This document shows positions 9,019 through 11,154 of a stretch of DNA of 25,893 bases, piece after piece (the first letter of the stretch is position 1; the number at the start of each line of letters is the position of its first letter). The notes under the pieces are model-generated. The model made no database searches. It was given only the letters and a program-made list of their open reading frames with translations, and was not told the DNA's origin. This DNA is from a virus. Where the stretch lies: the IMG/VR virus record IMGVR_UViG_3300017528_000451; one strand, 5' to 3'. A program made the translations under genes and the position numbers.

Positions 9019-11154
9019 CTATGGAGTGGGGTGCTTACCGTTGCCGTTGGTCTCGCTTGCCTCCACGGCATCCTTGACCAGGACATCGATGGCATCACTG
9101 CCCTCCCCTTCCCGGGCAAGCCTCAATGCCGCATCCTTGTTGAAAGCACTGAGGCTACCGATTGCCTCCCCAATTCGGGATCCGAGCGCCGTACCCAGAA
9201 TTTCGAGGGCATGGGGCTTGTGCTCGAGATCCGGGTTGATGAACTTGACATGCGACAGCATTTCGACTGCCGCCTGTTCGAGATGGCGAGCAGTAACCAC
9301 AGGATTTCCATCCAGAGCATCGGGAATAGCCCGGAGCTTGGAACGCTCCACGACTTCTCGACACACTGCAGGAATCTGACGCGCCAGCATATGGCCAACC
9401 TTGGTGAGGTCGGCGTCGGGATGAAGAAGATCCCTTCCATACTTTCGAAGCAGTGCCATAGTGGCTTCTGCATCCGGAGCTTCGATTGGGATGATGGCAT
9501 CAATACGGCCTGGACGCATCATCGCCGGATTGATGTTGTCAGCATTGTTGGTCGTGAAGACGGTGAGCACCTCGTCATGCTTCCGATTCACACCATCGAG
9601 AGCGTTGAGATACTCGTCCAGCTTCTCGTCACGTTCCCCGTCCGTGATACGATCGATGTCTTCTCCGAAGATCACCGCCGGACCGTAGTTCTTGGCGAAG
9701 GCCAGGGCCTGAGACAGTTGCTTCAGATCGGTGATATAGATGTAGGTCCAGCCGTGCTGAACCGCCAGCTTTGCAGTCACCTGAGCAGTGAGGGTCTTGC
9801 CGGTGCCGAATGGACCAGCAAGAAGAACACCACGACGGAGGGGAATACCGGCCTTTCGACATGCCGAGGTATGGATGATGGGGACGAAAAGATTGGTCCT
9901 GACCATCTCATCCACGTCCCTGCTCAGAATCAAGTCATCGAGGTTCACCTTGCTGAGGTCCATGAACTTCGGAGCCTTCATTGGCTCGAACCTGGGATCG
10001 TCGGGGTTGAAATTGCTGAAATCGATGATGACAGCCTTACCCCGATAAATAGACCTCTCTCGCAGGATCTGCTGCGTCAACATCACCAGCTTCTCGATCT
10101 TGCTCTGGTCACCCTTACGAACCACGCCTGCAAGCTGCATGACTGGCATACCATCGACAAAAACCACACCAGTGTTCACATAACCAGCAACACCGTGGAA
10201 GGTCATCTTTCCCCAAGGGATTTGAATGACCGTATCAATATCCGCCTGGATGCCGATGGTAGCGGGAGGGATGATAGAGAAGAAGCCGAAAGTACTTTCT
10301 TGGCTTGCGAATCCATAAGTCTGCTCGATGGCACGAGTCAGAGCCAGGGCTGCATCTGGAGGATAGAATCCTGGGAACTTGTGGTCGATACTGACCTGCT
10401 TCTCTTCCTCGGCCTCGATCTTCTCCAGCCAGAACCTGGCAGTCTTATATGCCATGCCCTCTGGCAAGGTGATAACAGGACGTTCGTCCTTTTCTGTAAA
10501 ACGAACCCCGACATCCTTGAACTTGTCGGACTGGTTCTCCACCTTCGTAGTCTTCAAATCGGCCATAATTTCGTCGCTTCCTTCTAGTAGCTTTGGTGTT
10601 GAAGAATGAGCTTGAGTCGATTTATGTTCTTGTTCGGAAAATGAAGGAGAATTGTAGTGCTCGCAATCGTGCTGAAAAATAAAGCATCCGCAATCCACTT
10701 CGTGCTTTCTTACTGCTTCCTTATTTGAATCATAGGTGTCACAGGAAGTGCACGCCTCAATATGATAGAATCTATCAGATGTGAGGTCGTAACTACAGTC
10801 CCCTTCTTCAATGTGCTCCCATCCTAGATCAGCACATACACCACACTTGAACTGTTCGAACGAGCATTCCAGAGCAAACTGCCGAGTTTCGCGAAATAAC
10901 GAATCTGCATAAGGAGGATGATCCCCGTCACAATGAGGACATTTACCTCCATTATCCTCACGCAGAATGCGTTCCGCGGCAGCATACTTCTCGAAAAGTA
11001 TGATGAGCTTTTGAACTTTCTCTTTGGGGATCTTCCCTTTATGAGAAGATTCTCCTCCCGCAGAAGTAAGTATTCTTAGTTCAAAAAACTTTACCATTAC
11101 TTGATGCATCGACTCGAACGCAGCCGACAAGCGGTTACGTTCCTCTGTATTCAT
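9019..11154 (-). CDS. classic-clade AAA+ ATPase with an N-terminal multi-Cys/His (zinc-finger-like) module
   Basis: Walker A is LLAGPFGTGKTLTA and Walker B is AVIFGEDIDRI. Sensor-1 and second-region-of-homology motifs are TTNNADNINPAMMRPGRID. The N-terminal 170 aa carry repeated CxxC/H pairs (CPHCDGDH, CGVCADLGWEH, CTSCD, CGCFIFQHDCEH). A strong SD (GGAGGAGG) precedes the ATG. Confidence 0.7.
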   Translation of the reverse strand: MNTEERNRLSAAFESMHQVMVKFFELRILTSAGGESSHKGKIPKEKVQKLIILFEKYAAAERILREDNGGKCPHCDGDHPPYADSLFRETRQFALECSFEQFKCGVCADLGWEHIEEGDCSYDLTSDRFYHIEACTSCDTYDSNKEAVRKHEVDCGCFIFQHDCEHYNSPSFSEQEHKSTQAHSSTPKLLEGSDEIMADLKTTKVENQSDKFKDVGVRFTEKDERPVITLPEGMAYKTARFWLEKIEAEEEKQVSIDHKFPGFYPPDAALALTRAIEQTYGFASQESTFGFFSIIPPATIGIQADIDTVIQIPWGKMTFHGVAGYVNTGVVFVDGMPVMQLAGVVRKGDQSKIEKLVMLTQQILRERSIYRGKAVIIDFSNFNPDDPRFEPMKAPKFMDLSKVNLDDLILSRDVDEMVRTNLFVPIIHTSACRKAGIPLRRGVLLAGPFGTGKTLTAQVTAKLAVQHGWTYIYITDLKQLSQALAFAKNYGPAVIFGEDIDRITDGERDEKLDEYLNALDGVNRKHDEVLTVFTTNNADNINPAMMRPGRIDAIIPIEAPDAEATMALLRKYGRDLLHPDADLTKVGHMLARQIPAVCREVVERSKLRAIPDALDGNPVVTARHLEQAAVEMLSHVKFINPDLEHKPHALEILGTALGSRIGEAIGSLSAFNKDAALRLAREGEGSDAIDVLVKDAVEASETNGNGKHPTP

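Follow-up and report, generated by a model that had tools for sequence, protein, structure and literature searches.

Among the classic-clade AAA proteins, YjoB and Bcs1 are exceptional in that their Walker B motif contains ED, and both proteins are active (PMC9565160). In both, a ring of N-domains is stacked on the AAA ring to form a chamber, and YjoB has been proposed to be a substrate-specific chaperone (PMC9565160). Bcs1, a mitochondrial translocase of folded proteins, has an iron-sulfur protein as its folded cargo, and it shows no conservation of the pore-loop residues (PMC7994207). Here we describe an AAA ATPase gene in a 25,893-nucleotide stretch of virus DNA (IMG/VR record IMGVR_UViG_3300017528_000451; this whole stretch is referred to as the window). 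Its core belongs to an already known, uncharacterised phage family, phrog_10440, which has both unusual traits of Bcs1 and YjoB, i.e., the ED Walker B and the lack of pore loop 1. What is new is the fusion architecture and the predicted zinc domain at its N-terminus, which together with a helical hairpin makes up what is called here the zinc arm, an addition carried on a flexible linker of about 50 residues and seen in this lineage only. We put at about 45% the probability that the gene product is a cytoplasmic, ring-forming, chamber-type ATPase from a phage-specific branch of the classic AAA proteins, which would remodel a folded client recruited by this arm.

The AAA core and its phage family

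The gene (Table 1) encodes a protein of 711 residues, hereafter the query. An earlier description of the window, made by a model from the letters and their translations and called here the sequence-only reading, had quoted the motifs GPFGTGKT, GEDID and NINPAMMRPGRID. They are present in a real open reading frame (ORF), where they begin at residues 447, 497 and 540, respectively. The assignment to the classic clade was also borne out, by Walker A, a sensor-1 Asn, a second region of homology with two Arg residues, and Ala at the sensor-2 position. R547, R550 and D552 do not vary among 120 aligned family sequences, N536 is kept in at least 90% of them, and the stretch TTN(536)...PAMMRPGRID aligns with the RPGR motif of p97 and Cdc48. 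A596, conserved in at least 90% of the sequences, aligns with the Ala of p97 GFSGAD, and there is no sensor-2 arginine.

The motifs had also been described as textbook ones, which is not the case, since Walker B is ED and pore loop 1 has been lost. All 120 family members have E498 and D499, which are aligned to the DE of Cdc48/p97, so that Walker B reads VIFGED and not the hhhhDE form of the classic clade. At the expected site of pore loop 1, DSSP analysis of the model gave strand beta2 (E) at residues 470-474 and helix alpha2 (H) at residues 477-489, with two residues (TD) between them, and the stretch from T470 to F496 is 27 residues long in 104 of the 120 members. Relative to the query, the p97 D2 module is longer by 11 residues in the segment between beta2 and Walker B, where the insertion carries the p97 aromatic pore loop, and by 10 residues at pore loop 2. 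Throughout the family, the aromatic pore loop 1 has been lost and pore loop 2 is shortened. In threading unfoldases (Cdc48, FtsH, PAN, katanin and Vps4), a pore loop 1 of the form aromatic-hydrophobic-Gly stands between beta2 and alpha2. A threading unfoldase of the Cdc48/FtsH/katanin type is therefore unlikely, and the ED Walker B together with the missing loop makes a remodeller or chaperone of a folded client much likelier. The sequence-only reading had proposed an unfoldase or a remodeller, and of these two the remodeller remains.

The same features are seen in yeast Bcs1, which was reached through a phage Bcs1-like protein and has LLLEDID, GIPYRRG and a similarly short, loop-less segment. 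When the query was compared by hhalign with a profile of 70 Bcs1-like proteins, the probability was 99.5% (E 1e-22), and the alignment reached as far as the final strand and helix of the query N-domain. A Foldseek search using the AAA-less model (residues 1-400) gave weak matches to the N-terminal parts of viral ATPases annotated as BCS1. The traits shared with Bcs1 and YjoB point to work on folded proteins, and not to unfolding.

AlphaFold was run on the whole protein (mean predicted local distance difference test score, pLDDT, of 90) and on residues 1-400 alone (mean pLDDT 89), and the two monomer models gave the same domain map. In this check, which had been suggested together with the sequence-only reading, the region ahead of the AAA core was resolved into a hairpin, a compact Cys/His domain, a linker and an alpha+beta domain. 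The hairpin is mildly basic, with an isoelectric point (pI) of 8-10 in 8 of 9 homologues. The approximately 250 residues formerly taken as one unassigned domain proved to consist of two parts, i.e., a low-confidence acidic linker (residues 173-226) and the folded alpha+beta domain of phrog_10440 (residues 227-400). In the whole protein, the only Pfam match was AAA (PF00004) at residues 443-557 (E 1e-14). No hydrophobic membrane anchor was found, and the highest Kyte-Doolittle mean over 19 residues was 1.23, within the soluble N-domain. Neither a peptidase domain nor a second AAA ring was found in the protein by Pfam, in the sequence or in the model. The protein ends with ...NGNGKHPTP, a sequence in which an HbYX-type tail is absent.

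The phrog_10440 profile matched residues 227-668 over positions 23-467 of its 483 (403 bits, E 2.3e-120), and the features of the query core, from the alpha+beta N-domain and the ED Walker B to the arginine fingers and the absence of pore loop 1, recur in its members. Named members are Erwinia phage Frozen gp37, Escherichia phage Pollock gp37, Pseudomonas phage KPP25 ORF048, Delftia phage PhiW-14 gp235 and Gordonia phage Keelan gp46. The phage homologues are about 40% identical to the query over residues 228-684. The listed phage members are about 480-490 residues long and start about 25-30 residues ahead of the N-domain, whereas the query has 196 additional N-terminal residues (the hairpin, the zinc domain and part of the linker), which are encoded by 0 of the 88 matching phage records. 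These 88 records, roughly 60 of which also span the family N-domain, came from 50,697, and there are 1,519 metagenomic relatives of the core. The claim that such a gene is rare in phages is thus right by frequency, but the gene falls in an existing PHROG with more than 1,500 relatives. The core is found in N4-like phages of Erwinia, Escherichia, Klebsiella, Salmonella and Pseudomonas, in KPP25-like phages, PhiW-14, a Stenotrophomonas phage, and Gordonia and Mycobacterium phages, and in a 595-kb record of an uncultured phage (megaphage). Among 185,579 species genomes, it was found at only about 18 loci, mostly on contigs of metagenome-assembled genomes, and the zinc arm was found at none. Therefore, phrog_10440 is a mobile, phage-borne gene and not a housekeeping gene. 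Our literature search found no paper on this family. In GenBank, the homologues are labelled 'FtsH', 'metalloprotease' or '26S proteasome regulatory subunit', and the present analysis suggests that these labels are misleading.

Comparison with curated NCBIfam models gave 69.8 bits for TIGR01243 (CDC48; cut-off 802.65), 47.6 for TIGR01241 (FtsH; 600), 72.7 for TIGR01242 (PAN; 500) and 58.6 for TIGR03689 (Mpa; 504.75). Because scores of 48-73 bits stand against cut-offs of 500-800, no housekeeping family claims the protein, and the finding named beforehand as a refutation, an AAA core that clusters with a well-characterised housekeeping family and an N-domain known as an accessory domain of that family, was not obtained. 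By these scores, the protein is placed outside every characterised housekeeping AAA family tested. In addition to scoring below the respective cut-offs, it lacks the transmembrane anchor and the M41 peptidase domain of FtsH, and it has one AAA module and no double-psi-barrel N-domain, which separates it from Cdc48/p97. As for PAN, Rpt and Mpa, the query N-domain is alpha+beta in place of their coiled coil and OB domain, and the C-terminus is ...KHPTP.

The zinc arm and the probable origin of the fusion

An N-terminal Cys/His cluster with multiple CxxC pairs had been noticed in the sequence-only reading, and it was confirmed in an alignment of nine sequences, consisting of the query and eight full-length homologues (P0002-P0009; 51-67% identity to the query), with a mean pairwise identity of 44% in this region. 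Residues 72-164 hold 11 of the 13 Cys of the protein, with the motifs CPHC (72-75), CGVC (104-107), CTSC (135-138) and CGC (155-157). The first 172 residues have 24 invariant columns, and 14 of them are Cys or His, namely C72, C75, H79, C104, C107, H114, C120, H131, C135, C138, H151, C155, C157 and C164; 10 of the 11 Cys in the arm are included. The cluster is not due to chance, because these 14 of the 24 columns are Cys or His despite the mean identity of 44%. In C135-x2-C138-x12-H151-x3-C155, the ligands are spaced as in a classical C2HC zinc finger, and the 14 ligands fit a domain that probably holds about three zinc ions at putative sites. The domain is acidic in all nine sequences (net charge -6 to -20, pI 4.2-5.1).

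The Cys/His domain matched no Pfam family, even at E up to 5, and had no sequence relative in the PDB at E up to 10. HNH, a DnaJ cysteine-rich domain and Hsp33 were also considered for the Cys/His pattern and set aside, as Pfam profiles gave them no support at E up to 5. An exhaustive HMMER scan with the zinc domain found eight matches among 1.84 billion representative proteins. The whole arm is present in three of them (P0003, P0007 and the 200-residue P0121), and the other five have in common a module of about 55 residues from the arm, C-x2-C-x3-GW-x-H ... H-[IV]-E-x-C-x2-C ... H-x3-C-x-C, for which there is no Pfam match. This module occurs singly in proteins of 81-119 residues (P0123, P0124 and P0126) and in tandem in P0122 (four copies) and P0125 (three copies). 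P0123 is sited among many small ORFs on a phage-like contig. The predicted zinc module of the arm is a new, rare small domain, which also exists as a free-standing small protein on phage-like contigs.

Most family members have no N-terminal extension. Nine carry the zinc arm, four an extension of about 330 helical residues, two another type of about 160 residues and one an extension of 440 residues, and such differing extensions at one position are the pattern expected for interchangeable targeting modules on a common engine. In P0007 (L011 10001..12454), the linker that joins the zinc domain to the core contains an inserted ribosomal L7/L12 C-terminal domain (PF00542), which hints that the arm region may gather protein-recruiting modules. 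These extensions suggest that a common engine is retargeted to different clients by swapped N-terminal modules (the zinc arm; L7/L12 in one relative), in which case the clients could be discovered by pull-down.

Several features bear on how the arm and the core came together. At six of six loci, a Met with an AGGAG-like motif upstream is found 25-34 residues ahead of the family N-domain, and the rest of the linker is poorly conserved; in the query this residue is M197. The GC content of third codon positions (GC3) is 0.35-0.45 in codons 1-180, as in the rest of the window, and 0.48-0.77, mostly at least 0.58, from codon 241 on, a rise from about 0.40 to about 0.65 across a boundary near codons 200-240. 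The step is also seen in the closest relative (L001), with a smaller one in L004 and L011, and it may reflect a foreign origin of the core or codon selection. A split version of the gene (L100 4750..6398 and L101 3910..5558) was seen on seven contigs, which come from at least two samples. There, the zinc part has a 200-residue ORF of its own (P0121), which overlaps the AAA ORF by 13 nt. The AAA ORF starts with MADMK, at the exact position of M197, with AAGGAG upstream. This relative indicates that the zinc arm and the AAA core can function as separate polypeptides and that, at least there, the internal start is in use. We suppose that the query gene would have been born by fusion of a zinc-protein gene to an AAA gene, with the Shine-Dalgarno sequence and ATG at M197 as the old start. 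An arm-less short isoform, for which M197 is a candidate start, may be made from the query gene and may mix into the ring.

Gene neighbourhood and flanking signals

All credible genes of the window lie on the minus strand. One gene order was kept in all seven zinc-arm loci of which the upstream flank was examined: a homologue of the eukaryotic major vault protein (MVP), GyrB, short ORFs, the zinc-arm AAA gene, two small ORFs, a receiver-only response regulator, MazG, a MoxR ATPase and a VWA protein. The other loci, L003 and L100/L101, are on short contigs beginning at GyrB. The AAA gene follows GyrB in every relative, usually with one or two short ORFs between, and a GyrA gene was not found in the window or in the inspected flanks of the relatives. 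The receiver ORF downstream of the ATPase was kept in all relatives with an examined downstream flank. The MVP homologue matched the rat/human MVP structures with E of approximately 3e-27 (its residues 507-839 to MVP 466-829). The first two phage MVPs were reported from gut phages in a 2023 preprint, and neighbouring genes like those seen here were not mentioned (10.1101/2023.11.10.566534). The two ORFs flanking the ATPase gene, 8296..8724 (minus, 142 residues) and 11278..12543 (minus, 421 residues), also have CxxC and His clusters, and neither had a Pfam, PHROG or PADLOC match; the length of the upstream one varies from 201 to 421 residues among relatives.

A PHROGs scan of 30 neighbouring ORFs gave only two matches, to the MoxR ATPase and to an endolysin-like protein that has a peptidoglycan-binding domain, and about 20 neighbouring ORFs had no PHROG match. 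The window DNA matched no deposited phage, it contains no hallmark virion gene, and only one relative was found in IMG/VR. The zinc-arm relatives sit on contigs of up to 209 kb. The host lineage of the gene looks like a large, unclassified phage that is very poorly represented among known phages.

Elsewhere in the family, the neighbours are different. The Frozen homologue is directly followed by a pair comparable to that of the window (an AAA-domain, MoxR-like protein and a VWA/metallopeptidase-domain protein), small hypothetical genes are found beside the KPP25 homologue, UvsX and gp41 helicase beside that of PhiW-14, and the Keelan gene is a reverse-oriented insertion in a tail operon. The MoxR-like and VWA/metallopeptidase pair was dropped as an operon partner, being adjacent in Frozen, 5 kb away here, and absent beside the KPP25, PhiW-14, Keelan and T4-like homologues. 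Family homologues are present also on T4-like contigs, one of which, of 249 kb, has two paralogues (554 and 503 residues) in tandem (L014 7001..10216), so that mixed rings are possible there. A role as a defence-system component was also set aside, as PADLOC gave only weak generic AAA matches (TRIP13, IetA).

The hairpins on both sides of the gene are kept in relatives with differing stem sequences, and a terminator on each side is well supported, as had been proposed. The 10-mer GGTATAAGAA has two exact copies in the window, each after a hairpin and before a start codon. It is located upstream of the gene in the closest relative as well (L001 9957..9966) and is missing in L011, and it may be a lineage-specific promoter element. 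The promoter half of each proposed terminator-promoter module is plausible, and from the hairpins and this short motif we infer that the gene may be independently regulated.

Table 1. Positions of the zinc-arm AAA ATPase gene, its parts and the surrounding features in the window
Feature	Position	Strand	Remarks
Zinc-arm AAA ATPase gene, whole ORF	9019..11154	minus	ATG to stop, span including the stop codon; 711 aa
Helical hairpin, residues 1-67	10954..11154	minus	AlphaFold2 helices H3-32 and H44-67; pLDDT 87-95
Acidic Cys/His domain, residues 68-172	10639..10953	minus	pLDDT 90-97
Flexible acidic linker, residues 173-226	10477..10638	minus	pLDDT 41-77; length varies in the alignment
Internal Shine-Dalgarno-like GAAGGAAG, then ATG (M197)	10564..10587	minus	Candidate second start or relic of the old AAA-gene start
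Alpha+beta N-domain, residues 227-400	9955..10476	minus	Family-specific; first part of phrog_10440
Single classic-clade AAA module (alpha/beta subdomain and lid), residues 401-640	9235..9954	minus	
Walker A GPFGTGKT, residues 447-454	9793..9816	minus	Fits GxxGxGK[ST]; G447, G450, G452 and K453 invariant in 120 sequences
Strand beta2-to-Walker B segment, residues 471-492	9679..9744	minus	Expected site of pore loop 1
Walker B variant AVIFGEDID, residues 493-501	9652..9678	minus	ED for DE
Sensor-1 Asn N536 and second region of homology	9499..9549	minus	Arginine fingers R547, R550
C-terminal three-helix extension, residues 641-711	9022..9234	minus	AlphaFold2 helices H649-667, H670-681, H685-703
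Upstream terminator-like hairpin, then T-run	11231..11254	minus	Ends the preceding gene; conserved in L001, L011
Promoter-like motif GGTATAAGAA	11198..11189	minus	Kept in L001-L003
Shine-Dalgarno GGAGGAGG ahead of ATG	11165..11158	minus	
Downstream hairpin, then CTTTCTTTGC/T-rich tract	9006..8990	minus	Kept, with different stems, in L001, L004, L011
Second GGTATAAGAA, just ahead of the next gene	8969..8960	minus	Ends 4 nt before the next ATG
Major vault protein homologue, full-length	15620..18283	minus	887 aa; Pfam MVP_shoulder E 2e-29 and vault repeats
GyrB, full-length	12639..14750	minus	703 aa
Stand-alone response-regulator receiver	7850..8221	minus	123 aa; no output domain
MoxR-type AAA_5 ATPase	3214..4203	minus	
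VWA-domain protein	1137..3302	minus	721 aa; overlaps the MoxR ORF by 89 nt

Possible functions and comparison with known ATPases

As a chamber-type remodeller, the protein would be an active ATPase, by analogy with the ED-type Bcs1 and YjoB. A folded client would be enclosed or gripped by the N-domain ring together with the AAA ring, and movements driven by nucleotide would then reshape it, release it or shift it elsewhere; an unfolded chain would not be threaded through a narrow pore. Recruitment of the client or an adaptor, most likely a host or phage protein, would fall to the zinc arm, which itself is most likely protein-binding because it is too acidic for direct nucleic-acid binding. Several results weigh against this proposal. 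The Foldseek TM-scores were low (0.15-0.3), the Pfam family BCS1_N (PF08740) was not detected in the protein, and a conserved operon partner was looked for across the family and not found. The AAA module scored higher with p97 D2 than with Bcs1, both in hmmsearch (101.7 versus 62 bits) and in hhalign (175 versus 133), and because of this higher similarity the ED motif and the missing pore loop could be convergent.

The similarity to p97 leads to another explanation, in which the protein is a processive unfoldase of the Cdc48/PAN/FtsH type and threads a substrate recognised by the zinc arm, possibly to a peptidase. The best sequence matches are indeed Cdc48, p97, VAT and proteasomal Rpt subunits, the GenBank names of the homologues (FtsH, metalloprotease, 26S proteasome regulatory subunit) agree, and in Erwinia phage Frozen a ClpP-annotated gene lies upstream of the homologue, at a distance of about 2 kb. 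However, such a machine is quite unlikely with pore loop 1 deleted and pore loop 2 shortened across the family, and without a peptidase domain, an HbYX tail or a second AAA ring; moreover, the PAN, CDC48, Mpa and FtsH scores are 7- to 20-fold under the curated cut-offs, and no peptidase was present among the window ORFs scanned with Pfam. The position of the gene, which follows GyrB in every relative, would fit a protein with zinc fingers that bind DNA or RNA and an ATPase that remodels a nucleoprotein complex in replication, topology or transcription. The C-x2-C-x12-H-x3-C spacing is that of a classical zinc finger, the PhiW-14 homologue lies between UvsX and gp41 helicase, and the Pollock homologue is near exonuclease and DNA polymerase genes. 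On the other hand, the acidity of the zinc domain in all nine sequences argues against nucleic-acid binding, family members without this domain occupy the same kinds of position, and classic-clade AAA proteins act on proteins, so that we regard this role as unlikely.

The conserved gene order raises the idea of an assembly or cargo factor for phage structures, with the shell of the MVP homologue encoded a few genes upstream as the candidate. At seven of the seven zinc-arm loci with an examined upstream flank, GyrB and the zinc-arm AAA gene come a few ORFs after an MVP-like gene, the zinc arm was not found outside the MVP-bearing lineage, and Bcs1-type machines handle folded cargo (PMC7994207). 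The AAA family is, however, common in phages without an MVP gene, and synteny within one lineage is no proof of a functional linkage, which makes this role very unlikely. In a more specific form, the zinc arm would dock a Bcs1/YjoB-like ATPase on the vault-like MVP shell or its cargo, and the ATPase would load, unload or assemble the compartment by moving folded proteins. This form is a long shot; if true, it would be a viral counterpart of the folded-protein translocation by Bcs1. The slimmest chance is given to a Cys/His cluster that is a redox or metal sensor switching the ATPase, like the zinc centre of Hsp33, and not a targeting domain. The dense invariant Cys residues, including CxxC and CxC pairs, would suit it, but there is no Pfam similarity to the Hsp33 or DnaJ cysteine-rich domains at E up to 5, the occurrence of the module alone in phage proteins of 81-119 residues and in tandem arrays suits a binding module, and one relative has it as a separate polypeptide.

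The chamber-type remodeller can be set beside several known systems. Cdc48/p97/VAT D2 and Rpt/PAN give the top sequence and profile scores and have the same second region of homology, sensor 1 and sensor-2 Ala as the query, but the query differs in its single AAA ring, in the ED that replaces DE, and in lacking pore loop 1, an HbYX tail and a double-psi-barrel or OB N-domain. ClpB and ClpA are made as long and short isoforms via an internal start, and the query resembles them in the conserved Shine-Dalgarno sequence and ATG inside the gene just ahead of the core, which would give a candidate isoform without the N-terminal targeting domain. With Bcs1, and with phage Bcs1-like proteins such as CcrColossus gp235, the query shares the ED Walker B, the absence of an aromatic pore loop 1, and the layout of one AAA module behind an N-domain; GIPLRRG ahead of Walker A corresponds to GIPYRRG in Bcs1, and the alignment is almost gapless at the loop site. 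Bcs1 forms a heptameric ring with a substrate cavity, and the models of the query are of the monomer. In contrast, Bcs1 is membrane-anchored and the query has no transmembrane helix, and the lid subdomain and overall sequence of the query are nearer to p97 D2. Membership in Bcs1 proper was rejected on these grounds, i.e., the lack of a membrane anchor and of a BCS1_N match, and the higher similarity to p97 D2. YjoB of Bacillus subtilis (PDB 7w42), like the proposed ring, is cytoplasmic, and it is a hexameric classic AAA chaperone (PMC9565160). The phrog_10440 family is treated here as a separate branch of the classic clade, a member of neither group, which by analogy would work like Bcs1 and YjoB.

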